Shown here: positions 2,866-50,711 of the stretch, piece by piece
Layout: every line of letters starts with the position of its first letter
Numbering within the stretch: the stretch's first letter is position 1
Source: Erysipelotrichales bacterium
GTDB lineage: Bacteria; Bacillota_I; Bacilli_A; RFN20; CAG-826
Assembly (NCBI GenBank): GCA_022508525.1
Contig: JAFLVA010000001.1
Location: 90,879 to 154,878, forward strand
Reading direction: 5' to 3'
DNA: 64,000 nucleotides
Program-made: the position numbers and the translations under genes
Notes under the pieces: generated by a model
The model's input: only the letters and a program-made list of their open reading frames with translations
What the model was told of the DNA's origin: nothing
Databases searched by the model: none

Positions 2866-3150
2866 TCTGCGACACCAGCAGGACTAAAAGCAATAAAAAG
2901 AATGAAGGAATTATCAAAAGAAGATGATAAAAGCACTGCGACGAATGAAATGGTTACATTTTTAGTTTTAAATACAGCGGGAGTTACAATATTACCTACA
3001 ACTGTTATGGCAATAAGGCAGAGTTATGGATCTACTAATCCAGCAGATTTCTTAATTCTTTCCTTTGTGGGTACGCTTGCATCGTGCATCTTTGGTCTTT
3101 TATTAGACAAGTATTATCAACGAAAGGCAGAAAGAAAACATGGCAAGTAA
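2866..3150 (+). pseudogene. spmA: 3' fragment of spore maturation protein A gene (spmA), 5'-truncated at the element junction
   Basis: In-frame codons from ~2866 read SATPAGLKAIKRMKEL...MVTFLVLNTAGVTILPTTVMAIRQSYGS...DKYYQRK. This resembles only the C-terminal half of B. subtilis SpmA. No N-terminal ~100 aa, no RBS at the ATG at 2902, and an 11-nt overlap with spmB as in intact operons. Confidence 0.7.
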
Positions 3151-3664
3151 AATATCTCTTATCTTCATACCTCTTTTAGTTTTATTTGCAATTGGGTATT
3201 CATACGCTAAAAAAAATAATGCATATTCTTCATTTATCAAAGGAGTAGAGGAAGGATTACCACTATTTAAAGATTTATTTCCAAGCGTTATTGCTATGCT
3301 TTTATGCGTTACATTACTTAAAAGTTGTGGAATCATTGACGATATTAAAAGTCTTATGATGAAATGGATTCCACAATCTGAGACGGTTATTGATTTAACT
3401 CCAATGATTTTATTTAGACCAATATCTGGTTCTGCTTCAGTTGCTTGCTTTGATGCAATATGTAAAACATTAGGACCAGATTCATTAACAGCAAAAATTG
3501 CAGCAACAATTCAAGGATCAACAGATACAACAATTTATATTCTCGCTCTTTATTTTGGATCAGTTGGAGTTACAAAATGGAAGCATGCATTAAAGACTGG
3601 CTTATTAACTGATATAGTTGGAATAATTGTAGGTATTGTTTTAGCACTAATATTTTTTAAATAA
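3140..3664 (+). CDS. spmB: Spore maturation protein B (nucleoside-recognition/Gate domain membrane protein)
   Basis: FIKGVEEGLPLFKDLFPSVIAML...LFRPISGSASVA...GPDS...QGSTDTTIYILALYFGSVGV resembles SpmB over its full length. Confidence 0.85.
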   Translation: MASKISLIFIPLLVLFAIGYSYAKKNNAYSSFIKGVEEGLPLFKDLFPSVIAMLLCVTLLKSCGIIDDIKSLMMKWIPQSETVIDLTPMILFRPISGSASVACFDAICKTLGPDSLTAKIAATIQGSTDTTIYILALYFGSVGVTKWKHALKTGLLTDIVGIIVGIVLALIFFK

Positions 3665-4795: not shown

Positions 4796-6334
4796 TTAAT
4801 ATGTTTCAATTTTTAATTTACATGTTAACTCTGTTGTATCTTCAATCGTTACAATATATTTAAAAAAACCTGCTGATTCTTTGAAATATTCATTAGTTTG
4901 GTGAGGAGTCATATCGCGATACTGTGAATTCCTTTGTAAATCAAATACATCACCTTTAATAAATAAATCGTCAGATGTTGCATGAAATGATGAGCCTGTT
5001 AAGCCATTATGACCAAACCTACAATCACGAGGAATTAACGTTGAAATAACTAGGTGCTGACCTTCATTAGTCATGAATCCTTCAATATTACCACGAGGTG
5101 TATTAGAAAATTTAACCCCGATCATCTTATCAATATCATCTTCAAATTCGTTATCAATATTTACAGCACGTGCATTAATATAGGTAATTCTTAATCCTGA
5201 TGTTTGATATCCTTTTTTAATTTCGCCGTTTTCCGATTTTTTATGACCTTCTAGATAATCTTTTTCATTCAAACCAGTTGGTGTAATATATTCCATCATG
5301 ATGTATTCATCAAAGGGAGTACCATTAAAATTATCGGTTTTAAAAATTAAGAAATCTCCAGTTTCTGTTGCGCTATTTAGGGTTATTTCACCAGAGGAAT
5401 CAATAATATATGGATCAGCCCAAGATAATGCAAATTTATTGTACATTGAATGATCACCTAAATCATCGTCCATCATATCAACTTTTCCCATTGGAGCAAC
5501 GTTACTATAGCCAGTGTCATAAAAATCTGTCAAACCTAGTAGATGACCTGTTTCATGAATATAAGTGTGTGCATCTATTGAGTCAAATCCATAACCTTGG
5601 TACATCATATCATACGATGCCCAAGAATAACGCATTGCAATTGGTGAATTAATATCACCTTTATTAATATTGCCTTCATGGTCGTAAGTATAAGCCCAGA
5701 AATACTCTGGTATAGATTCATTATTAGAATAATTTGGTGCACTATAGACAAGATAAATTGCATCAATAAAACCATCTTTATTTTGATCATAATCTAAGAT
5801 GTCATCATAAGTGTCCTTATACCAAGAAACTATTTCGTCTAAAAGAAAATATATCCCATTATCTTGAAAGATTTTATCTTCTTTAGCCTTTAACTCTTCT
5901 GGAGTTAGATCTAAATTAAACCAATCGGTAACTTTACCGGATAAATTTAATTTATTATAGCTAGATTTTTTGTAATAAGAACTAACTGATTCATAAGCTG
6001 TTTCTTCGCTTGTTCCAAAAAATGCTTTTTCTAAATCGTTTCTTATTTTTTCTGTAGCATTATTTTCATAACCTTTAATTGAAATAGGAACAACTAATAT
6101 TTTTTGATTGCCTATTGATGGTAATGTTGGTCGGCCATAATTATTAAATAAAGTAGCGTAGTTATTTTTTTCATTATGCGCTAATTTATTAAACACTTTT
6201 GAATCAGAATAACTTGTAGATGTGAAATCATTAGATACATTTGTAGATGGATTAGGAGATATAGAATTTTTCCCTGTTGAGCAGGAAAATAGGAAAGTAA
6301 TAGATAATAATAGCGGGAAAGTTTTTTTAGTCAT
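4796..6334 (-). CDS. Lipoprotein, M6 (immune inhibitor A-like) zinc metallopeptidase
   Basis: Lipobox LFSC-S. HETGHLLGLTDFYD (HExxH followed by a D.YD-type motif, as in InhA/M6). Last gene of the lipoprotein operon, overlapping the upstream gene by 8 nt. Confidence 0.7.
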   Translation of the reverse strand: MTKKTFPLLLSITFLFSCSTGKNSISPNPSTNVSNDFTSTSYSDSKVFNKLAHNEKNNYATLFNNYGRPTLPSIGNQKILVVPISIKGYENNATEKIRNDLEKAFFGTSEETAYESVSSYYKKSSYNKLNLSGKVTDWFNLDLTPEELKAKEDKIFQDNGIYFLLDEIVSWYKDTYDDILDYDQNKDGFIDAIYLVYSAPNYSNNESIPEYFWAYTYDHEGNINKGDINSPIAMRYSWASYDMMYQGYGFDSIDAHTYIHETGHLLGLTDFYDTGYSNVAPMGKVDMMDDDLGDHSMYNKFALSWADPYIIDSSGEITLNSATETGDFLIFKTDNFNGTPFDEYIMMEYITPTGLNEKDYLEGHKKSENGEIKKGYQTSGLRITYINARAVNIDNEFEDDIDKMIGVKFSNTPRGNIEGFMTNEGQHLVISTLIPRDCRFGHNGLTGSSFHATSDDLFIKGDVFDLQRNSQYRDMTPHQTNEYFKESAGFFKYIVTIEDTTELTCKLKIETY

Positions 6335-7805
6335 TTATTATTACATCTCCATTCTTGCAGTGCACTATATTGATTGAGCTTCCTAAATTCCAACTTATAA
6401 GATTTTCACCAATTATTTCTTCTTTTTCTATTGAATGCCATTGATCCATTGTGCCTGAATAATATATTTCTTCAAGTGATGATGTCATTCTAAATGTATA
6501 AGCTCCTATAAAAGTAATACTAGCTGGTAAAGTTAGCTTCTCTAATCTCAAAACATAAGAAAAAGCTTCACGATCAATTATTTCAACTCCATCACTTACC
6601 TCGTATTCAAATTGTTCATGACGAGCAGGATAAGAAATAAGGCGTGTTTTGTCTTTACTATATAAAACATTATTTTCTACAACAAAATTAGGATTATCTT
6701 TATGCATGCTTATTGTTTCTAAATAACGATCATAAGCAACTAAAGAAGTACCAATTTCTTCAAGTGTAGATGGCAAATATATACTTTCTAATATTTCGCA
6801 ATATGAAAATGCTCCATTGCCGAGAGTGGTAACTCCTTCAGGTATTGTTACACTTTTTAATCTTGGATTACGTATAAATGCATTATCTTTAATTACTCTT
6901 AGGGATGTTGGTAAAACATATTCGTTTGTAGAATTATCAACAAAGGCACCATCTTCAATGACTTCTACACCATTTTCAAGAACAACTCTTTTCAAATGAA
7001 AATTATTTACTACAGCACTTGCGTGTATTACCTTGATATTGCCGGGAATGATTAATTCATCTAAGGAAGAACAGTTACTAATGACATAAGATGATAATTC
7101 GCGCATTCCTTTTCCTAAGGTAATAGATTTAATTGACGAAAGATTAAAAGCATATTCTCCAATACATTCAACCGAATCTGGAATAGTAATAGTAGTTATT
7201 TTTTTAGTAGAAGCAAAAACTCTCTCGCCAATTTCTTTTAGATTTTTACTAAGAATAATTTCTTTGGCATTACTTGCTATAAAAGCATAATCGGCTAATT
7301 TAGTAATTTCGTCATCCAAATGCACAACATCTTTTTTTGGTGGACAGAAAATAAGTTCGTTGCCTAATTTGTTTAAAAGCAGACCATCTTTGCTTTTAAA
7401 ATAAGGATTTTCTGGTTCAACTTCAATATTTTCGATAGTTAAACAATTAGCAAAAGAAATTCCTTTGCATATTGCTATATTTTTTGATAAAACAATAGTT
7501 TTAATGCCACCACTAGATGCAAAAGCATAGTCTAGAATGCCAGTAATTAGTTTGCCATTAAAAGATTCTGGAATAGTTACTTTATTAGGCCTATAGTTTT
7601 TATAATTTTTAATAAATAATGTTCCATCTTCATTTTCGACAAATTCGAAATCATAGATATTAGTAGTTTCTTCTTGCGTTGGAGTAGATGTTGGTGTTTT
7701 AGAGGTTTCTTGACTGCTTATAGAACTTTCACTACTTGTAGAATTGTTTTCTGCACATGAAAACAAAACTAGAGGTAGTAGAAAAATCAATAATTTCTTC
7801 CTCAT
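6327..7805 (-). CDS. Lipoprotein with BspA-type leucine-rich repeats (LRR_5-like)
   Basis: Lipobox LFSC-A, S/T-rich tether, then ~15 repeats of about 23 aa with the pattern I.IP..V..IG..AF..C..L..I. Confidence 0.7.
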   Translation of the reverse strand: MRKKLLIFLLPLVLFSCAENNSTSSESSISSQETSKTPTSTPTQEETTNIYDFEFVENEDGTLFIKNYKNYRPNKVTIPESFNGKLITGILDYAFASSGGIKTIVLSKNIAICKGISFANCLTIENIEVEPENPYFKSKDGLLLNKLGNELIFCPPKKDVVHLDDEITKLADYAFIASNAKEIILSKNLKEIGERVFASTKKITTITIPDSVECIGEYAFNLSSIKSITLGKGMRELSSYVISNCSSLDELIIPGNIKVIHASAVVNNFHLKRVVLENGVEVIEDGAFVDNSTNEYVLPTSLRVIKDNAFIRNPRLKSVTIPEGVTTLGNGAFSYCEILESIYLPSTLEEIGTSLVAYDRYLETISMHKDNPNFVVENNVLYSKDKTRLISYPARHEQFEYEVSDGVEIIDREAFSYVLRLEKLTLPASITFIGAYTFRMTSSLEEIYYSGTMDQWHSIEKEEIIGENLISWNLGSSINIVHCKNGDVIIND

Positions 7806-7809
7806 AAAA

Positions 7810-9192
7810 TTACTCCAAAGTTATACCAAAAGGCAAAATAGTTGTGTTTAAATCTGAGAAAGTCGCAACAACTTTACCAGAACTACTTGTAAATCCGTTA
7901 TTAAAATTAAATCCGATTTCAATTCTATCTAAAAGGCCGCTCTTTAAAAAGATTTCACAGCCAGTTCCGTATCCATCAAGTTCACGTATTACATCTGGAG
8001 ATGGAATGAAACACTCTGCACCAATATAAGTTTTAAGTTCTTCAACCACTTTATAAGATTCGGAATTTGCATCATAATTGAAGATTTCCGGAGCAACTTC
8101 ACTCACTATTGGAATAAAGATATTTTTATCTGCACCATCAAGAGAAGAGAAACCATTTTGCATGGCAGTTTGATAACTCCATGAAGAGTCAGCTTCATTA
8201 TATCCCAAAGGAGTAACTGTCTCTTGATCATCATTAATTACTAGCAATACATCACTTAAAGCGCTTGGAGTTATACCGTCACCCCATTGGCCATATATGG
8301 CATCTTCTGTATAAAAATATTTACTGACAATTGGCTCAGTGGAACCATCGAATTCAAACGAAAGAGTTAATGTGTAATTATTCTTAATTGACTTAAATGC
8401 CTCTCCTAATGCATCATGCTCTGTTTTATGAACTTTTGGTGTTGGTTTTGTGATTGTTGTATTTCCCATATTTGACAATGTTAAAGTAGCAGTGGCATCT
8501 AATAAGAAATAAACATTTTCATAATTAATAGTTTCATATGTTTCTATAGTTGTAGGTTTTAATGTAATTGATTTAATCTCGCCATTTTCTATTATTGCAG
8601 TAGCAGATTCAATAACGCTATAGAATATAGGATCAATATCTCCAAATAATTGACTTGCCAAATAAGAGGCCTTTTTTAAATTTAAAGAATATTCACCATC
8701 TTCTATTTTTGTAAAGTCTTTCTCATTTAAATAATAGAAAGGATTATCGAAATATGATCCATAATTTACTTTAAATCCGGCGCTATCAGTAGCAAGAATC
8801 TTTTCAATTTCATTTTTATAATTTAATTCTAGAAAATACAAATATCCATCATCGCCTTCAGCATAAATATCATTGGTATGTACATAACTTGAGCCATCGG
8901 CTTCATAACCTGTTACTAAACGTTCAATACCAGTCATTTCTTTGTTTTCATATTTAAAAACATAATCGAATTGTGTTTCAGTAATATCTCCATTTAAAAC
9001 TCCACCTAAAATAGAAGAAGCAGTGAGAAATCTTGCTTTTTCGTTAATTGTGCCAGAAATAGTAACACCATCATTAAATTTTTCTAAGGCTTTTTGAATT
9101 TCTGATTTTGTACTATTTGTTCCGCCGTTTCCACAACTTGACAAAGCTATTAATGTTGCAGAACATAAAACGATTAAAAAAGTTTTTTTCAT
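7810..9192 (-). CDS. Lipoprotein of unknown function with an internally duplicated domain
   Basis: Lipobox LSSC-G. Both halves end in a similar strand motif (TLTLSNMGNTTI and ATFSDLNTTIL). Confidence 0.6.
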   Translation of the reverse strand: MKKTFLIVLCSATLIALSSCGNGGTNSTKSEIQKALEKFNDGVTISGTINEKARFLTASSILGGVLNGDITETQFDYVFKYENKEMTGIERLVTGYEADGSSYVHTNDIYAEGDDGYLYFLELNYKNEIEKILATDSAGFKVNYGSYFDNPFYYLNEKDFTKIEDGEYSLNLKKASYLASQLFGDIDPIFYSVIESATAIIENGEIKSITLKPTTIETYETINYENVYFLLDATATLTLSNMGNTTITKPTPKVHKTEHDALGEAFKSIKNNYTLTLSFEFDGSTEPIVSKYFYTEDAIYGQWGDGITPSALSDVLLVINDDQETVTPLGYNEADSSWSYQTAMQNGFSSLDGADKNIFIPIVSEVAPEIFNYDANSESYKVVEELKTYIGAECFIPSPDVIRELDGYGTGCEIFLKSGLLDRIEIGFNFNNGFTSSSGKVVATFSDLNTTILPFGITLE

Positions 9193-9208
9193 AATTATGC
9201 TCCATCCA

Positions 9209-10624
9209 TTAGATTAAACTATTGTAAAAGTCATCAAGGAATTCCAAACCAAAAGTTGAATTTCCGAATTGAGTTAACGTAAATGATATAGTTTCATCAA
9301 TAAATTCTAAAGTTTCCATGTTATATACATACCCAGTGATGTTTATTATGGAAAATTCTTCATTAAGTTCTATTTCTGCAGCACCAATAAATTTACCTTC
9401 TTCAAGTAAAGCACTATCAAAATTATTACTGTAATTCATTAAATTAATCATAGATTCAAGTGAACCATCAGAAATTAGTTTGCCTTCCATTTCCATAAAT
9501 GTTTCGTCAATTAGAGCTGATGGGAATACACCAGTAATTTCGGATAACGATGAAATAGAATAGTTTCTATCTCCTAGTTCAGGAGTTGATGAAGTGAGAT
9601 TAAAATCATATATTCCTGCTCCACGATCATCGTTTGCAGGGAGTTTAATAAATCCTTCGCTAGTAAATCCATCAACTACAAAGTTTTCAGTTACGATTCT
9701 GTAAAATTTTTCAACAGATGGATCAGTTATAACGTAGTTTTGTAAATCTAACAATGCTTTTATTTTGTCTTTAAGACTTAATTGTTCATTTCCGCCATCT
9801 TCTAAAGCACCATTACCATCTTCTAAGTAGGTGGTTATTTCATCAATTGCAGTTGTTCCAATATCACTAACAGTCAGGCGTGTTAGTGATCCCCAAGAGT
9901 CTTTGAATTCTATTACTAAACCTGTCTTGTTCTCTGACAAACTAATGTGGCTAGAAGCATTGTTATCATACATATAACTTTGGGCCATCATTTCATCTAG
10001 CAGAGGAAGTACAGCTTGAATGTCGATATCAAACATTTTAGAGTTGTCCTCATTAGCAGTAAGTTCGCTAAAATTATCAGCATCTACGAGATTAAATGAA
10101 TGAGCTAAGTAGACTAAATCTCCCCAATTGTCTTCAATTTGTGTTGTGTATAGACCATGAAGTTTTTCACCCTCATCATTTTCTAAATATGCTGTAGTAG
10201 GGACTGCCACTTCATCTTCGATTGTATAACCGAAAATACCCTCATCATTTTCCGCATATGCAATCTCTTCATCTCCCATATAAGGGACTGTATGAATGGT
10301 ATAGAATGCATTTGGAAGAATTTTTGTCACAAAGGTTTCTTCATCCGCTAATGATTCAACAACTATTGTATAATTGTTATCTTCAATTAGTGTTTCAATC
10401 ATTTTTTGAATTAGTACATCATCTTCAATAGGTTCAGGAGTTGTTGAATCTGAGGTTGCTCCTGAAAATGCTGAATCTGAAGAAGTTGCATCAGATGTCG
10501 GCTGTGATGTTTCACTGGTTGATACGCTTGGCATAGAGGACTCTTCACTAGTGGAAGGGTCATTTTTGTTACATGCGACTAATGCTAAACTACAAATAGC
10601 TAAAATTAAAAGTTTTTTGTTCAT
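9209..10624 (-). CDS. Lipoprotein of unknown function, paralogue of 7810-9192
   Basis: Start reassigned to MNKKLLILAICSLALVAC-N (RBS AAAAGGAG). A promoter lies inside the track's 47-aa N-terminal extension. Long S/T/E-rich tether. Motifs TRLTVSDIGTTAI and SFTLTQFGNSTF parallel the neighbouring gene. Confidence 0.6.
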   Translation of the reverse strand: MNKKLLILAICSLALVACNKNDPSTSEESSMPSVSTSETSQPTSDATSSDSAFSGATSDSTTPEPIEDDVLIQKMIETLIEDNNYTIVVESLADEETFVTKILPNAFYTIHTVPYMGDEEIAYAENDEGIFGYTIEDEVAVPTTAYLENDEGEKLHGLYTTQIEDNWGDLVYLAHSFNLVDADNFSELTANEDNSKMFDIDIQAVLPLLDEMMAQSYMYDNNASSHISLSENKTGLVIEFKDSWGSLTRLTVSDIGTTAIDEITTYLEDGNGALEDGGNEQLSLKDKIKALLDLQNYVITDPSVEKFYRIVTENFVVDGFTSEGFIKLPANDDRGAGIYDFNLTSSTPELGDRNYSISSLSEITGVFPSALIDETFMEMEGKLISDGSLESMINLMNYSNNFDSALLEEGKFIGAAEIELNEEFSIINITGYVYNMETLEFIDETISFTLTQFGNSTFGLEFLDDFYNSLI

Positions 10625-10670
10625 AATTATTTCTCCTTTTCTCTTAAAAACTTTATATATAATTTTTAAA

Positions 10671-10699
10671 ATTATACTAGTTTTAAATAGTAAAGGCAA
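10671..10699 (-). promoter_or_regulatory. Sigma-A-type promoter of the lipoprotein operon
   Basis: On the minus strand: TTGCCT (10699-10694), 17-nt spacer, TATAAT (10676-10671). About 40 nt upstream of the ATG at 10624. Confidence 0.55.
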
Positions 10700-10885
10700 C
10701 ATTTTTATTAATGACTGACTTATATAAACAGCTAATGAAATATTTTTAATGAAGAAATAACGCATAAAATGATGCCTTTATATTAATGGAAAATATTTCC
10801 GAATAAAAAAAATTTATATTTTTCAATTTAAACTATCTTTTTTATTTTAATTTTATTAAAATATTGTAGGAACGGAGGAAGGTAT

Positions 10886-11218
10886 ATGAATCGAGAAACG
10901 CGAGTTCAAAAATATGCTAAACTTCGTGAAGATATTGATAACATTGATGAAACAATATTAGGTAACATTCAAAAAAAGAAATTTGATGTTGTAAAAGAGT
11001 CTATGAAACACGGGACTCAATCTAAAGAAAAGAGTAATATCAATACATCTAATTTATCTATTGAGGATATTTTAGAAGGTCATTCAAAGTACGTGGACTT
11101 AGAAAATTATCAAATTGATAAACATAAATCAAAACCAAAAACAAAGCTATTTATTTTGTTAGGTGTTGTATTTGTTGTTGTAATTGTTCTAGTTATGATA
11201 GCGTTGTTTAGGAGGTAG
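10886..11218 (+). CDS. Hypothetical tail-anchored membrane protein
   Basis: RBS GGAGGAAGG. Hydrophilic K/E-rich body and a single C-terminal TM (LFILLGVVFVVVIVLVMIALF). No family recognised. Confidence 0.45.
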   Translation: MNRETRVQKYAKLREDIDNIDETILGNIQKKKFDVVKESMKHGTQSKEKSNINTSNLSIEDILEGHSKYVDLENYQIDKHKSKPKTKLFILLGVVFVVVIVLVMIALFRR

Positions 11219-13199: not shown

Positions 13200-13240
13200 C
13201 ATTTTATGAATCACTGCATATGATAATTTGGGTGATTATC

Positions 13241-13477
13241 ATGGATGATTCAATATTTGATAAGGTTGAAAAGAAAACAAATGTCAAAAAGAATGATATT
13301 CTTAAATTGGCCAAATCTTTATCTGGCAAAGATTTAAATGATGAAAAAGTTTTGCGATCCTTAATTAAGGATGTGGCTAAACTTGCAAATAAGCCAGTCT
13401 CTAAGGAAAAAGAAGAAAAAATTATTAATGCAGTTAAAAAAGACAAAATTCCAAAGAATCTAAATAAAATAATTTGA
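13241..13477 (+). CDS. spoVIF: Small sporulation protein resembling SpoVIF (YjcC family)
   Basis: MDDSIFDKVEKKTNVKKNDILKLAKSL...EKVLRSLIKDVAKLANKPVSKEKEEKII resembles my recollection of B. subtilis SpoVIF. RBS GGGTGA precedes the ATG at 13241. Confidence 0.5.
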   Translation: MDDSIFDKVEKKTNVKKNDILKLAKSLSGKDLNDEKVLRSLIKDVAKLANKPVSKEKEEKIINAVKKDKIPKNLNKII

Positions 13478-13568: not shown

Positions 13569-15047
13569 ATGGAAACTCAATCCGTGCTAAAAGATATTGG
13601 TTTAAGAAATAATGGTGACATTTATTTGGGTGTTGTTGGTCCTGTGCGCGTTGGAAAATCAACATTTATTAAAAGATTTATGGAAGTGTTGGTAATCCCT
13701 CGAATTATCAATGAAGATGAGAAAAAAAGAGCAATGGATGAACTTCCACAATCGGGAACCGGAAAGACAATTATGACAATGGAACCAAAATTTGTTCCTG
13801 CAAATGCAGCGGAGATTTTGGTTGAAGATAATTTGAGTGTGAAAGTTAGACTCATCGATTGTGTTGGTTATGTTATTGAAAGCGCACAAGGGTATTTAGA
13901 AGATGGCAATATGCGTCTTGTTAAAACACCATGGTTTAGTGAGACTATACCTTTTGATGACGCCGCAAAAATTGGAACACAAAAAGTAATTAAAGAACAT
14001 TCGACATTAGGAGTTTGTGTTTTAAGTGATGGAACAATTAATGAATTTAATCGCGCTGACTATATTTCTGCAGAGGAACAAGTTATTGAGGAATTAAATG
14101 CAATTAATAGGCCATATGTTATTGTTTTAAATAGTAAGACACCTACTGCAGATTCAACACTAAAAACCAAAGAAGAACTAGAAAGCAAATATAATGTTCC
14201 TGTTATTCCTTTAAATGTCGAAGAAATGAGTGAAAGAGATGCCACTAATATATTAAAAGAAGCATTATATCAATATCCAATTTCAAATATCGATGTGGCA
14301 TTGCCTTCTTGGGTTAGTGTTCTTGATGAAGAACATTATCTCAAAATTAGTATTAAGACTACTATTGAAGAGGCAATGAATACAGCAAAAACAATTCGTG
14401 ATGTGAATTCAATTAGTGAGATCATTAAACAGAATGAATATGTTTCTAATGCTACATTAGCAAATGTAGATACTGGAAGTGGCGTAGTTACTTTACAAAT
14501 GGATGTAAAAGATGGGCTATATGAAGTGATTTTAAAAGAATTAGTGGGCTGTGAAATATCTGATAAGGCACAATTGATTGCAGTATTAACAGATTTTGTA
14601 AAAGCTAAAAAGGATTATGAACTTCTAGGCACAGCTTTAAAAACAGCAGAAGCTACGGGATATGGATTTTCAAGCGCTAGTCTTGACAATATGAAAATAG
14701 AAAAACCTACTGCAACAAAATCTTCTAATAGATATGGCGTAAAAGTCAAAGCGACGGCGTCGACATATCACATTATTAAAGTAGATTTAGAAACATCGTT
14801 TGAACCAACACTTGGATCAAAAATGCAAAGTGATTATTTCCTAGACTATTTGTTAAAAGCTTACGAAGAAGATCCTAAAAAGATTTTAGATTGCGAGATC
14901 TTTGGACAGAAGTTTGGCGATATAATTAAGGCTGGCATAACTGGCAAACTTGCAACATTACCAGAACCTGTAAAGATTAAATTACAGCAATTAGTAAAGA
15001 CTATTTCTAATAAAGGAAAAACAAATTTAATAGCATTCGTATTTTAG
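13569..15047 (+). CDS. spoIVA: Stage IV sporulation protein A (spore coat basement-layer ATPase)
   Basis: 492 aa, with IYLGVVGPVRVGKSTFIKRFME Walker A and full-length SpoIVA-like sequence. Adjacent to hbs, as in Bacillus. Confidence 0.92.
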   Translation: METQSVLKDIGLRNNGDIYLGVVGPVRVGKSTFIKRFMEVLVIPRIINEDEKKRAMDELPQSGTGKTIMTMEPKFVPANAAEILVEDNLSVKVRLIDCVGYVIESAQGYLEDGNMRLVKTPWFSETIPFDDAAKIGTQKVIKEHSTLGVCVLSDGTINEFNRADYISAEEQVIEELNAINRPYVIVLNSKTPTADSTLKTKEELESKYNVPVIPLNVEEMSERDATNILKEALYQYPISNIDVALPSWVSVLDEEHYLKISIKTTIEEAMNTAKTIRDVNSISEIIKQNEYVSNATLANVDTGSGVVTLQMDVKDGLYEVILKELVGCEISDKAQLIAVLTDFVKAKKDYELLGTALKTAEATGYGFSSASLDNMKIEKPTATKSSNRYGVKVKATASTYHIIKVDLETSFEPTLGSKMQSDYFLDYLLKAYEEDPKKILDCEIFGQKFGDIIKAGITGKLATLPEPVKIKLQQLVKTISNKGKTNLIAFVF

Positions 15048-21093: not shown

Positions 21094-21819
21094 TTAAGAA
21101 AGATAATTACGAACATTTTCTTTAAATTCATTAGATGTTACATCTTCGCCATCAATTAATTTCCCAATAGCGTTTTGAATAGGCTCTGGGAAATGTCTCA
21201 TGTGCTTTAACACTTTCAAATATTCTTCGTAAATTTTTTCATCGGATTTTAATACAATTTTATATAACAACATTAAATCTTTTGCATCGTTTAATGGGTC
21301 GTGAGAAACACCAGTGGGTTCTACTCCAAAAAGCTTTAAATAATTTACTAAGGAATAAGGATTATCCTTGTCGTCTTTGACATATTGTGACAAAACTGCT
21401 GCAAAATCTATATCGTTTTTAATAATATGTTGAACGATGTCTTTATCTGCGTTTGGGTGTGCCTCAAGTGACTTAGCAAGAATCCTTAAGTCGTGATTAC
21501 CAAATGTCATAAAGGCTGTTTTTTTGTATGACAAACCACAATACTTTTTAAGTTTTTCCATTGCTTCTTTAAAACTAATTCCCTCTTTGTTTAGTAAATC
21601 TGGAGTTATTCCTGTTAATTCTTGAACAAATCTACCAATAGGACCTGTTGATTTAACATAAAATTTAATGCCTTGGTATATTTTTCTAATTCGATACTTA
21701 TAATCTAAATCAACTTTTACTGCACCTAACGCAATCATTTCATGAGAAAATTGTGTTCCTTCTAAATCTATAAATACGATATGTTTTCTTTTATTCAATA
21801 ATTTTATAAGACTTTTCAT
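21094..21819 (-). CDS. DEDDh-type 3'-5' exonuclease (KapD/ERI-1-like)
   Basis: FIDLEGT (Exo I), FGNHDLRIL (Exo II), SHDPLNDAKDL (Exo III with His). Confidence 0.65.
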   Translation of the reverse strand: MKSLIKLLNKRKHIVFIDLEGTQFSHEMIALGAVKVDLDYKYRIRKIYQGIKFYVKSTGPIGRFVQELTGITPDLLNKEGISFKEAMEKLKKYCGLSYKKTAFMTFGNHDLRILAKSLEAHPNADKDIVQHIIKNDIDFAAVLSQYVKDDKDNPYSLVNYLKLFGVEPTGVSHDPLNDAKDLMLLYKIVLKSDEKIYEEYLKVLKHMRHFPEPIQNAIGKLIDGEDVTSNEFKENVRNYLS

Positions 21820-21953
21820 AATACAACCTCGTAATTAGTATACCATTGTACAAAAAATAGTCCATTTAAAACAAAATAAGTAACTAGATTTTTTTTGACT
21901 CATATAAATAAGTGAGCTTGTTAAAGCTCTTAAACTGTAGGTGAAAGTTAAAT

Positions 21954-22439
21954 ATGTTTTTTTGTAATAATAGTTTTTTAAAAAACTTTAACAATTGCTG
22001 TGTATCGACTTGTACACCAACAGCTTGTGGACCAACTGTCGTAATTACTTGTGATAATTGTTGTACTAGGGTATGTTCAGAAGTAACATTTACTATTACA
22101 ATCACAAATACTGCTACATGCACAATTGAGTGCGCAGCTTTACATATCAATGTGCCACGTTCATTCTGCTTCCATCCAGGAAGTATAAATGTTGATAGTA
22201 CTCCACAAGAAACAGCTACACCTGATTGTATTTCATTAGGAACAATTTCCCCAAGCCAAACTATAACAGTCACATATACTGTTACTGTTATGGAATGCAA
22301 ACGTTACAATAAAACGCAAGCGTTATTAACAGGTGTTGTATGCTGCTGCTGTGAAAATAAGAAAGTTGCAATTCCATCTAATGTAAATTGCTTACAAGTA
22401 TGTTGTTGCTGCTGTGGCGGATCAAGTACAGCTGAATAG
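21954..22439 (+). CDS. Cysteine-rich protein (24 Cys in 161 aa) with a central T/V/I-rich beta-sandwich-like segment. Candidate spore-surface structural protein.
   Basis: RBS AGGTGA and a strong downstream terminator. N-terminal CC/CxxxxC cluster, central TFTITITNTATCTIE...LGTISPSQTITVTYTVTV (DUF11-like pattern), C-terminal CCCC and CCCCC runs. No signal peptide. Confidence 0.6.
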   Translation: MFFCNNSFLKNFNNCCVSTCTPTACGPTVVITCDNCCTRVCSEVTFTITITNTATCTIECAALHINVPRSFCFHPGSINVDSTPQETATPDCISLGTISPSQTITVTYTVTVMECKRYNKTQALLTGVVCCCCENKKVAIPSNVNCLQVCCCCCGGSSTAE

Positions 22440-22458
22440 TTAAAGTAATAAAATATTT

Positions 22459-22481
22459 AGGCCAACTATGTTGGCCTTTTT
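22459..22481 (+). terminator. Rho-independent terminator after the Cys-rich gene
   Basis: aggccaac-tat-gttggcct followed by a T-run. Confidence 0.85.
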
Positions 22482-22504
22482 AATTTTTCAAAACTATAAA
22501 ATTA

Positions 22505-22533
22505 TTGAATACTATTTATTAAAATAGTATAAT
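22505..22533 (+). promoter_or_regulatory. Sigma-A promoter of gpsB
   Basis: TTGAAT, 17-nt spacer, TATAAT. Confidence 0.6.
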
Positions 22534-28096: not shown

Positions 28097-28369
28097 ATGA
28101 TAGAATTAATTAAAGTTTCAAAGAATTCAAATGTGAATGCAGTAGCAGGAAGTATGGCAAGTATCATGCGTGGACAAAGCCAACTTATTGTTCAAACAGT
28201 AGGTGCTGGTTCGCTTAATCAAGCTATTAAGGCCCTGGCAATTGCAAGAGGATATTTAACACCAAGTGGTATTGAGTTATATTGTTATCCATCTTTTAAA
28301 GAAGTCATCATTGATAAGATGACAAAAACTGCAATTCGACTAACAATTGTTAAAAAATTGACGAAGTAG
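28097..28369 (+). CDS. spoVS: Stage V sporulation protein S
   Basis: LIKVSKNSNVNAVAGSMA...VGAGSLNQAIKALAIARGYL is SpoVS-like. rny-ymdB-spoVS synteny. Confidence 0.9.
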   Translation: MIELIKVSKNSNVNAVAGSMASIMRGQSQLIVQTVGAGSLNQAIKALAIARGYLTPSGIELYCYPSFKEVIIDKMTKTAIRLTIVKKLTK

Positions 28370-32592: not shown

Positions 32593-32706
32593 TAAGAACT
32601 AAGAAGAGTATTTAAATATAAATTTAGATGCTCTTTTTTATGATTAATTTAAATCATTTTTGCACTATTGAATGCGATTTTTCATATATTTTATTGGGTG
32701 AATATA

Positions 32707-50339: not shown

Positions 50340-50711
50340 ATGAACTTTGTAGAAATTGAACAAACTCAAATTGTGGAAGACACCATCAAATCAATATTTG
50401 AAGGTAAGGTTGTTACGAGAACAAAAAACACAATTAAAATAGTGTATAAAAATCAAAATAAATTATATAGTTTGATAGTTGAAAAAATTTCAGATGACAA
50501 AATTTTATTAGGTACTTTATCGCATTTAAACGAATTAGAAATTAATAAAATTACATCATTTAGACATGAGATCGAAGGATATGAGATTAATTGCCAAAGT
50601 AGATTAATTGATTTTAAATTTGATGACTCACTTATTGAAATACGTTATGATTTAATTCTTGTTGATGACATTCTTAGCAGCAATATCCTAAGAATAAGAT
50701 ATAAAAATTGA
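50340..50711 (+). CDS. Hypothetical protein (123 aa), beta-rich, family not recognised
   Basis: ORF with RBS AAAGGTGA. Lies upstream of rpoE. No diagnostic motif. Confidence 0.4.
   Translation: MNFVEIEQTQIVEDTIKSIFEGKVVTRTKNTIKIVYKNQNKLYSLIVEKISDDKILLGTLSHLNELEINKITSFRHEIEGYEINCQSRLIDFKFDDSLIEIRYDLILVDDILSSNILRIRYKN

Follow-up and report, generated by a model that had tools for sequence, protein, structure and literature searches.

A poly-cysteine DUF11/CLIPPER protein as a candidate spore-envelope subunit of uncultured gut Bacilli

We suggest that the cysteine-rich protein of 161 aa encoded in the 64-kb window (the whole stretch of DNA analysed here) is probably a subunit of the spore coat, crust/exosporium or appendages, made in the mother cell and cross-linked by disulfides. 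The host lineage is a spore former, having spoIVA, spoVIF, spoVS and cotE within the window; related loci, reached via contig look-ups with the exact protein, hold the same four genes plus gerQ. The preliminary description had proposed a structural spore-surface protein of an undescribed type. The family without annotated members, the DUF11 fold, the lack of an export signal, the spore-former lineage, the conserved sigma-K-like box and the DUF11 precedents in other spores agree with this proposal, while we infer the location on the spore, the disulfide cross-linking and the self-assembly, and likewise a place at the spore surface as against somewhere in the coat.

The ORF at 21954-22439 (+ strand, stop codon included) is a real, constrained gene, described here as a single-domain DUF11/CLIPPER protein by its composition, its PF01345 match and its dN/dS. 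The dN/dS of 0.06-0.19 against orthologues indicates purifying selection and, together with the one architecture kept across about 55-60 protein clusters, excludes reading the ORF as a non-gene or shadow ORF; the antisense ORF at 21884-22300 (- strand) is the shadow ORF of the pair. Cysteine accounts for 24 of the 161 residues (14.9%), compared with a mean of 1.1-1.3% for the long ORFs of the window and 2.8% for the runner-up ORF (of at least 100 aa). The positions are 4, 15, 16, 20, 25, 33, 36, 37, 41, 56, 60, 72, 92, 115, 130-133, 146 and 150-154. A recount of the translation returned the same total as reported earlier, and the runs VVCCCCENK and LQVCCCCCGG are letter-exact. The earlier N-terminal list was right for C4, CC15-16, C20 and C25 and off by one for each of C32, CC35-36 and C40 (true positions 33, 36-37 and 41). 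Cysteine clusters do flank the T/V/I-rich core, as had been described, but six more cysteines fall within that core, so it is not Cys-free. The absence of a signal peptide and of a transmembrane segment was also confirmed: no hydrophobic segment was found in the protein (maximum 19-residue Kyte-Doolittle mean 1.26), and an h-region is lacking at the N-terminus, where a single basic residue occurs.

The Pfam scan detected PF01345 (DUF11/CLIPPER) at residues 29-121 with 26.6 bits, above the gathering threshold of 24.6, in line with the earlier guess of a DUF11-type beta-sandwich. The suggested TIGR01451 search gave 16.2 bits, under the cutoff of 24; one homologue is labelled by its source 'uncharacterized repeat protein (TIGR01451 family)'. 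With E values up to 10 allowed, Pfam returned DUF11 and DUF7927 and nothing else, and searching PDB sequences with the family profile gave chance-level matches only. The structure prediction proposed in the preliminary description, run for a single chain with AF2 on 44 sequences, gave a confident model (mean pLDDT 85.1), in which residues 27-152 (22032-22409, + strand) are predicted to form an Ig-like beta-sandwich of the CnaA/CLIPPER type with 10 strands; the 10-residue blocks average about 89-97 across residues 31-150. Foldseek matched the model to TRAP-beta (TM 0.56), to the CLIPPER structure 9IFR (E 2.3e-4, TMt 0.61) and to pilins, all with TM values that are moderate only.

The conserved cysteines lie in the N-terminal tail, at C41 and in the two poly-cysteine runs. 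Eight of them (C16, C25, C41, C130, C132, C150, C152 and C153) are kept in at least 95% of the 44 members, and roughly half of the cysteine positions vary freely. Residues 1-26 (21954-22031, + strand) make up a predicted disordered tail carrying C4, C15, C16, C20 and C25, with pLDDT below 50 at residues 1-7 and 13-15 and on average over residues 1-20. In this tail C16 (95%) and C25 (100%) are conserved among the 44 members, and the remaining sequence and the length are variable. The CCCC run C130-C133 (22341-22352, + strand) stands at the end of the strand 118-131, and its conservation is 98% for C130 and C132, 80% for C131 and 41% for C133. The CCCCC run C150-C154 (22401-22415, + strand) belongs to the invariant motif LQVCxCC, where C150, C152 and C153 are present in 100% of the 44 members, preceded by an invariant Q148 and by V149, kept in at least 90%.

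The family appears to have lost the chemistry that is typical of its domain type. 9IFR, the CLIPPER domain of an Acinetobacter silvestris fibrillar adhesin, has the triad K715/N806/D748, an intramolecular Lys-Asn isopeptide plus its catalytic Asp, and one CxxC disulfide (10.1101/2025.04.25.650565), against eight conserved and up to 27 cysteines in the Cys-rich family. Alignments with canonical repeats place the Lys in columns 29-32 and the Asp in column 65. Among the 44 members the Lys columns never hold K, the Asp column never holds D (V/L/I instead) and I predominates in the Asn column; by this alignment, the Lys-Asn isopeptide triad of canonical CLIPPER is absent from the family. Some DUF11 domains without the isopeptide bond are noted in the paper that defined CLIPPER (10.1101/2025.04.25.650565).

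Such a protein might instead bind metal or buffer redox state in the cytoplasm (metallothionein-like, or as a carrier of Fe-S, Zn or Cu clusters) and have no part in the spore envelope, with the CCC and CxCC motifs as metal ligands. The 15% cysteine content in invariant clustered motifs would suit this function, as would the lack of an export signal, since a reducing cytoplasm is favourable to thiolate-metal chemistry. We consider it unlikely. No metal-binding family of Pfam or NCBIfam was matched at E up to 10, and the model places the Cys runs on strands of an Ig-like domain of 125 residues, where the chelation geometry would be poor because adjacent side chains face opposite sides. The free variation at about half of the Cys positions is easier to reconcile with cross-linking than with a defined metal site, and the conserved promoter box, described below, is mother-cell-like and not sigma-A-like.

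Upstream of the gene, we detected the conserved box CATATAAATAAGTG (21901-21914, + strand), consisting of the -10-like CATATAAAT and the presumed transcription-start region, and a -35-like AC (21883-21884, + strand) 16 nt upstream of the -10 box; AC-N16-CATATAAAT thus occupies 21883-21909, the position claimed for it earlier. The C. difficile sigma-K promoter has AC at -35 and CATATAAT at -10, and sigma-E shares a near-identical -10 and has ATA at -35 (PMC3789822). The box matches this sigma-K -10 at 7/8 bases. In the window by itself the AC-N16 pattern is at chance level (strict, 1 observed and 1.03 expected; loose, 11 and 8.6), so the significance of the promoter comes only from its conservation across orthologous loci. 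There the AC is located 15-17 nt upstream of CATAT in 13/15 unique upstream regions and 6/8 sequence sub-groups, in accordance with the published -35; two sub-groups (L016 and L021-23) are without it at the canonical spacing. The 14-mer (with at most one mismatch) was present in all loci examined, and in 370 kb of related loci it was found only before genes of the Cys-rich family; it is kept in the L021-23 subfamily despite a different genomic context. No sigma-A-like promoter was found on the + strand at 21820-21953. The B. subtilis sigma-K -10 consensus is CATAnnnTA, from which the family box deviates. The AC-N16/17 and CATA-type -10 of the window and most orthologues match the mother-cell sigma-K pattern, and -10 elements of the same type stand at the known mother-cell genes cotE, gerQ and spoIVA of these organisms; sigma-K is the most likely factor and late sporulation the most likely time.

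Sigma-E and sigma-K cannot be cleanly separated by sequence, and the protein could be sporulation-specific without being a late sigma-K surface component: it could be forespore-made (sigma-F/sigma-G), or an early, inner-layer or regulatory mother-cell protein under sigma-E. The near likeness of the two -10 elements (PMC3789822), the missing -35 AC in two sub-groups and the related CATA-type boxes of spoIVA (a sigma-E gene in model organisms) in these organisms all leave room for such timing. It is an improbable reading in our judgement, as no ATA was found at the sigma-E spacing, and the window and most of its orthologues have an AC at 16 nt instead. The forespore promoter consensus is GnATR...CATnnTA, and CATATAAAT does not fit it. 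Furthermore, the extremely Cys-rich proteins of characterised spores are outer-layer proteins (PMC7333573).

A stem-loop GAGCTT-gtta-AAGCTC (21914-21929, + strand) begins 4-5 nt past the -10 box, and a hairpin of 6-9 bp is predicted at the same site in 14/14 syntenic loci with differing stem sequences (z-scores -2.3 to -6.2); the orthologue stems GAACAA/TTGTTC, GAACCA/TGGTTC and AATGGA/TCCATT represent compensatory changes. The leaders were folded one by one, because the MAFFT alignment left the stems out of register, and the stems were compared by eye and z-score; the Rfam scan of the leader gave nothing meaningful. The ribosome-binding site AGGTGA (21939-21944, + strand) lies 9 nt before the ATG, with GGTGA near-invariant in the orthologue leader alignment, and AGGCCAAC-tat-GTTGGCCT and the T-run behind it form an intrinsic terminator at 22459-22485 (+ strand), its stem (22459-22477) having 8 bp with 5 GC pairs; the earlier description of a good ribosome-binding site and a strong terminator therefore stands. 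Because the Cys-rich gene has its own terminator it is monocistronic, and the downstream gpsB has its own sigma-A-like promoter at 22505-22533.

The Cys-rich DUF11 family comprises about 55-60 protein clusters, and no member has a functional annotation. The members are single-domain proteins of 143-206 aa with 13-27 cysteines (mean 12%), most homologues carry a precomputed PF01345 match, and the sources are uncultured gut Bacilli/Erysipelotrichales from rabbit, rumen and human samples. A further, enlarged profile search returned fewer matches than the first owing to its word prefilter and added only six clusters. The family was found in none of the cultured spore formers of the searched databases and thus cannot be counted among the general sporulation genes. 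The usual locus lies between a block of DEDDh exonuclease, recU and ponA and the gpsB gene; the divergent L021-23 subfamily has no sporulation gene within 16 kb of its locus.

The divergent neighbour of the Cys-rich gene is the DEDDh (RNase_T-type) exonuclease (21094-21819, - strand), given here as context only. In B. subtilis, the 3'-exoribonuclease KapD is captured and inhibited by the Cys-rich crust protein CotY (PMC11736430), and on this model the protein could be a spore-associated docking or sequestering partner of the adjoining exonuclease, not a bulk structural protein. In favour of this idea, the exonuclease is the invariable neighbour in 9/9 syntenic sub-groups, even where the downstream gene differs, and KapD is its best curated family in NCBIfam. 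The KapD match reaches only 37.9 bits against a cutoff of 169, however, with PolC-type exonuclease models nearly equal, and KapD is reported to be specific to Bacillaceae among spore formers (PMC11736430). The exonuclease has sigma-A-like promoters (TATACT/TATAAT) and stands before recU-ponA, and the divergent subfamily retains the promoter box without an exonuclease neighbour. A docking role thus seems very unlikely to us.

The nearest parallels to the proposed function come from proteins of other folds. The mutually unrelated Cys-rich proteins CotY, ExsY, CsxA and CdeC self-assemble and cross-link by disulfides into spore outer layers; such proteins are small to medium, lineage-restricted, made in the mother-cell cytoplasm and locked by disulfides after self-assembly, and more families of this kind have been predicted (PMC7333573). 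With CotY/CotZ/ExsY (Bacillus), CsxA (Clostridium sporogenes/botulinum) and CdeC/CdeM (C. difficile) our protein shares the proposed way of working only. None of them is among its Pfam (E up to 10, including the CotZ/CotY family), PDB sequence or fold matches, and its cysteine density (15%, with the CCCC and CCCCC runs) is higher than in proteins of the CotY/CsxA/CdeC type.

The Ena appendage subunits (Ena1A/B, Ena2A and Ena3A; DUF3992) resemble it in being small, all-beta and without a signal peptide, and in having a disordered N-terminal connector with CC. The counterpart in the model would be the disordered 26-residue tail with C15-C16, in which C16 and C25 are conserved. The Ena fold is a jellyroll, in contrast to the predicted Ig-like/CnaA sandwich of the Cys-rich protein. 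The DUF3992/Ena search recommended earlier gave no match in Pfam even with E values up to 10 allowed, and no Ena structure was among the top 50 Foldseek matches of either model. In Ena, the CC motif of the connector cross-links neighbouring subunits (PMC12357932).

DUF11 itself has precedents on spores. It occurs in the appendage proteins CRD1/2 and P29a/b of C. taeniosporum, in B. cereus CrdA-C and in the F-ENA anchor F-Anchor-3 of C. aceticum (PMC5749712, PMC12357932), and putative late mother-cell promoters were reported for the C. taeniosporum appendage genes (PMC5749712). These proteins, compared with ours by description only, are multi-domain or repeat proteins, and the cited text does not call them Cys-rich.

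The relationship to CLIPPER/DUF11 (PF01345) is one of homology above the Pfam threshold with a CnaA-like Ig beta-sandwich, and the family profile matches canonical repeats of DUF11 with E values as low as 1e-239. CLIPPER domains usually form tandem arrays within secreted adhesins that are thousands of residues long, while here a single-domain protein of 161 aa without a signal peptide is found. The canonical DUF11 role would make the protein an adhesin at the surface of vegetative cells, or a stalk module associated with their wall, that leaves the cell by a non-classical route. DUF11 is typical of fibrillar adhesins (10.1101/2025.04.25.650565), and the strong profile matches to giant multi-repeat proteins would point the same way. 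This role is highly improbable for a single domain without a transmembrane segment, sorting motif or repeats, with no adjoining secretion genes and with the isopeptide triad that defines adhesin-type CLIPPER missing in 44/44 members.

Returning to the spore-envelope subunit, we propose the following mechanism. Mother-cell RNA polymerase, most likely with sigma-K, would initiate just downstream of CATATAAAT late in sporulation. The stem-loop at the 5' end of the transcript probably shields it against 5'-dependent decay, and jointly with the strong ribosome-binding site and the gene's own terminator it would favour high output. As the protein has no export signal, it would be made in the mother-cell cytoplasm and deposited from there around the forespore. 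The predicted fold is an Ig-like beta-sandwich of the CLIPPER type, now without the Lys-Asn isopeptide, and the eight conserved and many variable cysteines may lock this fold and join neighbouring subunits by disulfides. The cross-linking would take place upon packing in a symmetric assembly or upon exposure to oxidants after mother-cell lysis, and the flexible Cys-bearing N-tail may serve as a connector between subunits.

A more far-reaching version is possible, and we put it forward tentatively. The family may represent a new class of spore armour, in which an Ig domain of the CLIPPER/CnaA type, otherwise an isopeptide-stabilised part of secreted adhesins, has moved to the mother-cell cytoplasm and exchanged its isopeptide for a dense set of cysteines. 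Polymerising via the Cys-rich N-terminal connector and the poly-Cys strands of the C-terminus, it would form a fibre or lattice, locked by disulfides, on the spores of uncultured gut Bacilli with small genomes. The CotY/CsxA/Ena principle would then have been invented here independently, with an unusually conserved cassette of promoter and 5' hairpin driving the gene.

For many strictly anaerobic gut bacteria, spores are the means of surviving oxygen and of transfer from host to host, and resistance, adhesion and germination are set by the outermost proteins of the spore. Knowledge of spore outer layers is scant beyond Bacillus and a few Clostridia, because lineage-specific Cys-rich proteins escape homology search. 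If the proposed function is true, the protein would give an abundant uncultured group of gut Bacilli/Erysipelotrichales its first candidate envelope subunit, and its gene, with the recognisable promoter cassette, could serve as a marker in the search for further parts of the late sporulation regulon of this lineage. It would also provide a CLIPPER domain in which disulfide chemistry has replaced the isopeptide, of relevance to protein-material design. Should the spore prediction fail, an unusual poly-Cys Ig domain would still have been described.

A phage or defence origin was considered and rejected, with no matches to PHROGs or PADLOC, and so was a RiPP precursor, the protein being a folded 125-residue domain with no modifying enzymes in the vicinity. 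The locus was found in two DNA metagenome runs only and in no RNA run. Some homologues have C-terminal tails rich in Thr, Pro and Glu, of a type typical of surface-exposed linkers.

The gene at 21954-22439 on the forward strand encodes a 161-aa protein with 24 Cys (14.9%), as placed and counted in the preliminary description. Mean Cys content across the window's long ORFs is 1.1-1.3%, and the runner-up among ORFs of at least 100 aa reaches 2.8%. We predict that the product is, on balance, probably a disulfide-locked spore-envelope protein made late in the mother cell. The gene is real and monocistronic: dN/dS is 0.06-0.19 (dS 0.8-2.5) against five orthologues, its own terminator (22459-22477, +) ends it, and the downstream gpsB is served by a separate sigma-A-like promoter. 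This terminator, the RBS AGGTGA (21939-21944, +) and the motif AC-N16-CATATAAAT (21883-21909, +) had all been proposed from the sequence, and all were found in the window. Nothing supports the antisense ORF 21884-22300 (-, 138 aa) as a gene; it is a shadow ORF opposite the T/V-rich coding strand.

The motif AC-N15-17-CATA is not enriched in the window alone (strict form, 1 observed and 1.03 expected; loose form, 11 and 8.6). CATAT(A/T)nAT followed by AAGTGA was found in all loci compared, and a search of 370 kb of related DNA located the 14-mer CATATAAATAAGTG, allowing at most one mismatch, nowhere but upstream of Cys-rich family genes, those in the P0269-type context included. AC lies 15-17 nt (mostly 16) upstream of this box in 13 of 15 unique upstream regions, representing 6 of 8 sub-groups. 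The P0269-type loci (L021, L022, L023) keep the exact 14-mer and lack AC at the usual -35 spacing. The C. difficile sigma-K promoter consists of AC and CATATAAT, and sigma-E has the same -10 but ATA as the -35 (PMC3789822). Expression of the gene in the forespore or early mother cell seems improbable to us. We detected a mother-cell-type promoter, AC-N17-CATATATTT (32664-32691), at cotE of the window, the start of which is most likely ATG 32707, preceded by GGGTGA, not the mechanically listed TTG 32668. The gerQ promoter of locus L015 reads AC-N15-CATATATT, and in related loci the -10 elements of gerQ and spoIVA are of the same class as that of cotE. No sigma-A-like promoter was found on the forward strand of the intergenic region before the Cys-rich gene.

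Directly after the box, at a constant offset, a hairpin of 6-9 bp is present in 14 of 14 syntenic loci (z-scores -2.3 to -6.2) and absent from the P0269-type loci. Its stems vary (GAGCTT/AAGCTC, GAGCG/CGCTC, GAACTA/TAGTTC, GAACAA/TTGTTC, GAACCA/TGGTTC, GAGA/TCTC, AATGGA/TCCATT); complementarity is kept and sequence is not, a pattern that points to a structured RNA located at the transcript's 5' end or close to it. In Firmicutes, 5'-terminal stem-loops guard mRNA against 5'-end-dependent attack by RNase J and RNase Y, and the leader hairpin may therefore act as a transcript stabiliser.

The DUF11-type core suspected earlier was confirmed by a match to Pfam PF01345 (DUF11, recently renamed CLIPPER) at residues 29-121, with 26.6 bits and a gathering threshold of 24.6; the TIGR01451 HMM remained sub-threshold. 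AlphaFold pLDDT rose from 67 with 7 sequences to 85.1 with 44 family members. The latter model has ten beta-strands spanning residues 28-150, with averages of ~89-97 for 10-residue blocks over residues 31-150 and pLDDT <50 at residues 1-7 and 13-15. Foldseek matched the models to generic Ig-like sandwiches, namely TRAP-beta (TM ~0.55), Gram-positive pilins, BslA and 9IFR, the CLIPPER domain of a fibrillar adhesin (E 2e-4, TMt 0.61); neither Ena nor another spore protein was found among the top 50 matches of either model. The CLIPPER hallmark is an Asp-catalysed Lys-Asn isopeptide (K715/N806/D748 in 9IFR), although some members have no bond (10.1101/2025.04.25.650565). When the family profile was set against canonical repeats from giant DUF11 proteins, the Lys fell at columns 29-32 and the Asp at column 65. 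Among the 44 members, K never occurs in the Lys columns or D in the Asp column, and Ile predominates in the Asn column. Judged by this alignment, the family has a CLIPPER-type fold without the isopeptide. The protein belongs to the superfamily by sequence and fold, but departs from it in the defining covalent bond and the usual architecture, and would represent a natural isopeptide-to-disulfide swap within the CLIPPER domain.

The Cys residues lie at 4, 15, 16, 20, 25, 33, 36, 37, 41, 56, 60, 72, 92, 115, 130-133, 146 and 150-154. The CCCC and CCCCC runs had been described exactly, and four N-terminal numbers were off by one; the clusters had been described as flanking the T/V/I-rich core, and six Cys are inside it. 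Eight Cys (C16, C25, C41, C130, C132, C150, C152, C153) are kept in at least 95% of the 44 members, and each protein adds 5-19 variable ones (total 13-27, mean 12%). A metal or redox protein is conceivable on composition alone, but the location of the Cys runs in strands, the free variation of half of the Cys positions and the promoter type make it unlikely.

In nine sequence sub-groups (to 34% identity) the gene is divergent from a DEDDh exonuclease gene (21094-21819, -, 241 aa, in the window), with recU-ponA beyond and usually gpsB-pgsA-cinA-recA downstream. This striking synteny with an invariable neighbour could suggest an exonuclease partner modelled on KapD-CotY (PMC11736430). The best curated family of the exonuclease is indeed KapD, the spore-crust 3'-exoribonuclease (NF005838), but the match is far under the cutoff (37.9 bits vs 169), the exonuclease promoter is sigma-A-like (TATACT/TATAAT adjoining the RBS) and the P0269-type subfamily lacks this neighbour, so we regard a partnership as very unlikely. 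That subfamily, the most divergent (206 aa, GCGCGC-rich N-terminus; L021 5714-5760, also L022 and L023), is flanked by an ABC-transporter binding protein on one side and formate-tetrahydrofolate ligase on the other, unlike the other loci, and no sporulation genes were seen within 16 kb of it. The syntenic loci encode SpoVIF and SpoIVA upstream and/or SpoVS, CotE or GerQ downstream; SpoVIF (13220-13477), SpoIVA (13569-15047), SpoVS (28097-28369) and CotE are all encoded in the window, which marks the lineage as endospore-forming.

The spore-envelope protein that we propose would be synthesised at a late stage of sporulation, in the cytoplasm of the mother cell. Its Ig-like domain is predicted to be compact, with two strands of poly-Cys and a flexible N-tail rich in Cys; the protein would be deposited on the forespore and then fixed by intra- and inter-subunit disulfides, as a lattice, a fibre or an inner-coat component. 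As noted earlier, the protein has no hydrophobic segment fit for a signal peptide or membrane anchor; with the export signal absent and the architecture wrong, a canonical secreted adhesin module is hardly credible. The proposed locking principle is the same as that shown for CotY/ExsY, CsxA and CdeC, which are mutually unrelated, and more Cys-rich families have been explicitly predicted in other spore formers (PMC7333573). DUF11 domains are known in C. taeniosporum spore appendage proteins, B. cereus CrdA-C and the F-ENA exosporium anchor (PMC5749712, PMC12357932). In the case of a fibre, the N-tail recalls the Ena connector. The protein belongs neither to Ena or CotY/Z nor to another named family of spore proteins. 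By candidate function it is best filed as a new family in the already known class of Cys-rich proteins of the spore envelope.

A word-indexed search returned only six relatives, and an exhaustive profile search returned many canonical multi-repeat DUF11 giants and ~10 short, full-length, single-domain relatives. Profile searches from the latter extended the family to ~55-60 clusters at 90% identity. Except for two fragments of 98 and 114 aa, the members are 143-206 aa long. Every one of them comes from a metagenome or MAG, and no cultured organisms were found among these clusters. The genome-collection matches are an uncultured Bacilli MAG (rabbit), an Erysipelotrichales MAG and a rumen Erysipelotrichaceae MAG, and one locus originates from a human gut metagenome. 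The sole source names are [quoted passage not shown] and "uncharacterized repeat protein (TIGR01451 family)". The family would provide a first handle on the spore-surface biology of an uncultured, host-associated Bacilli lineage.

The homologues P0003, P0005, P0033 and P0269 (loci L004, L007, L021) have Thr/Pro/Glu-rich low-complexity tails beyond the last CCCC motif, for instance TPTETPETPE and PTPEPTPEPTTPEE; the window protein has no such tail. Tails of this composition would fit surface exposure. P0060, a 176-aa cluster representative, matches the family to residue ~120 and then diverges, as a copy of P0005 with a frameshift or an assembly error would.

Elsewhere in the window, four large ORFs follow in succession at 4796-10765 (-; 512, 492, 460 and 518 aa), one with BspA-type leucine-rich repeats and three without a Pfam match at E <=1e-5. 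The ORFs 3140-3664 (+, 174 aa) and 50340-50711 (+, 123 aa) have none at E <=1e-5, and 10886-11218 (+, 110 aa) has none at E <=1e-3. At the left edge, a large serine recombinase (36-1697, +, 553 aa; Resolvase, Recombinase and Zn-ribbon domains) adjoins an FRG-domain protein (1706-2782, -), and the pair may mark the border of an integrated element.
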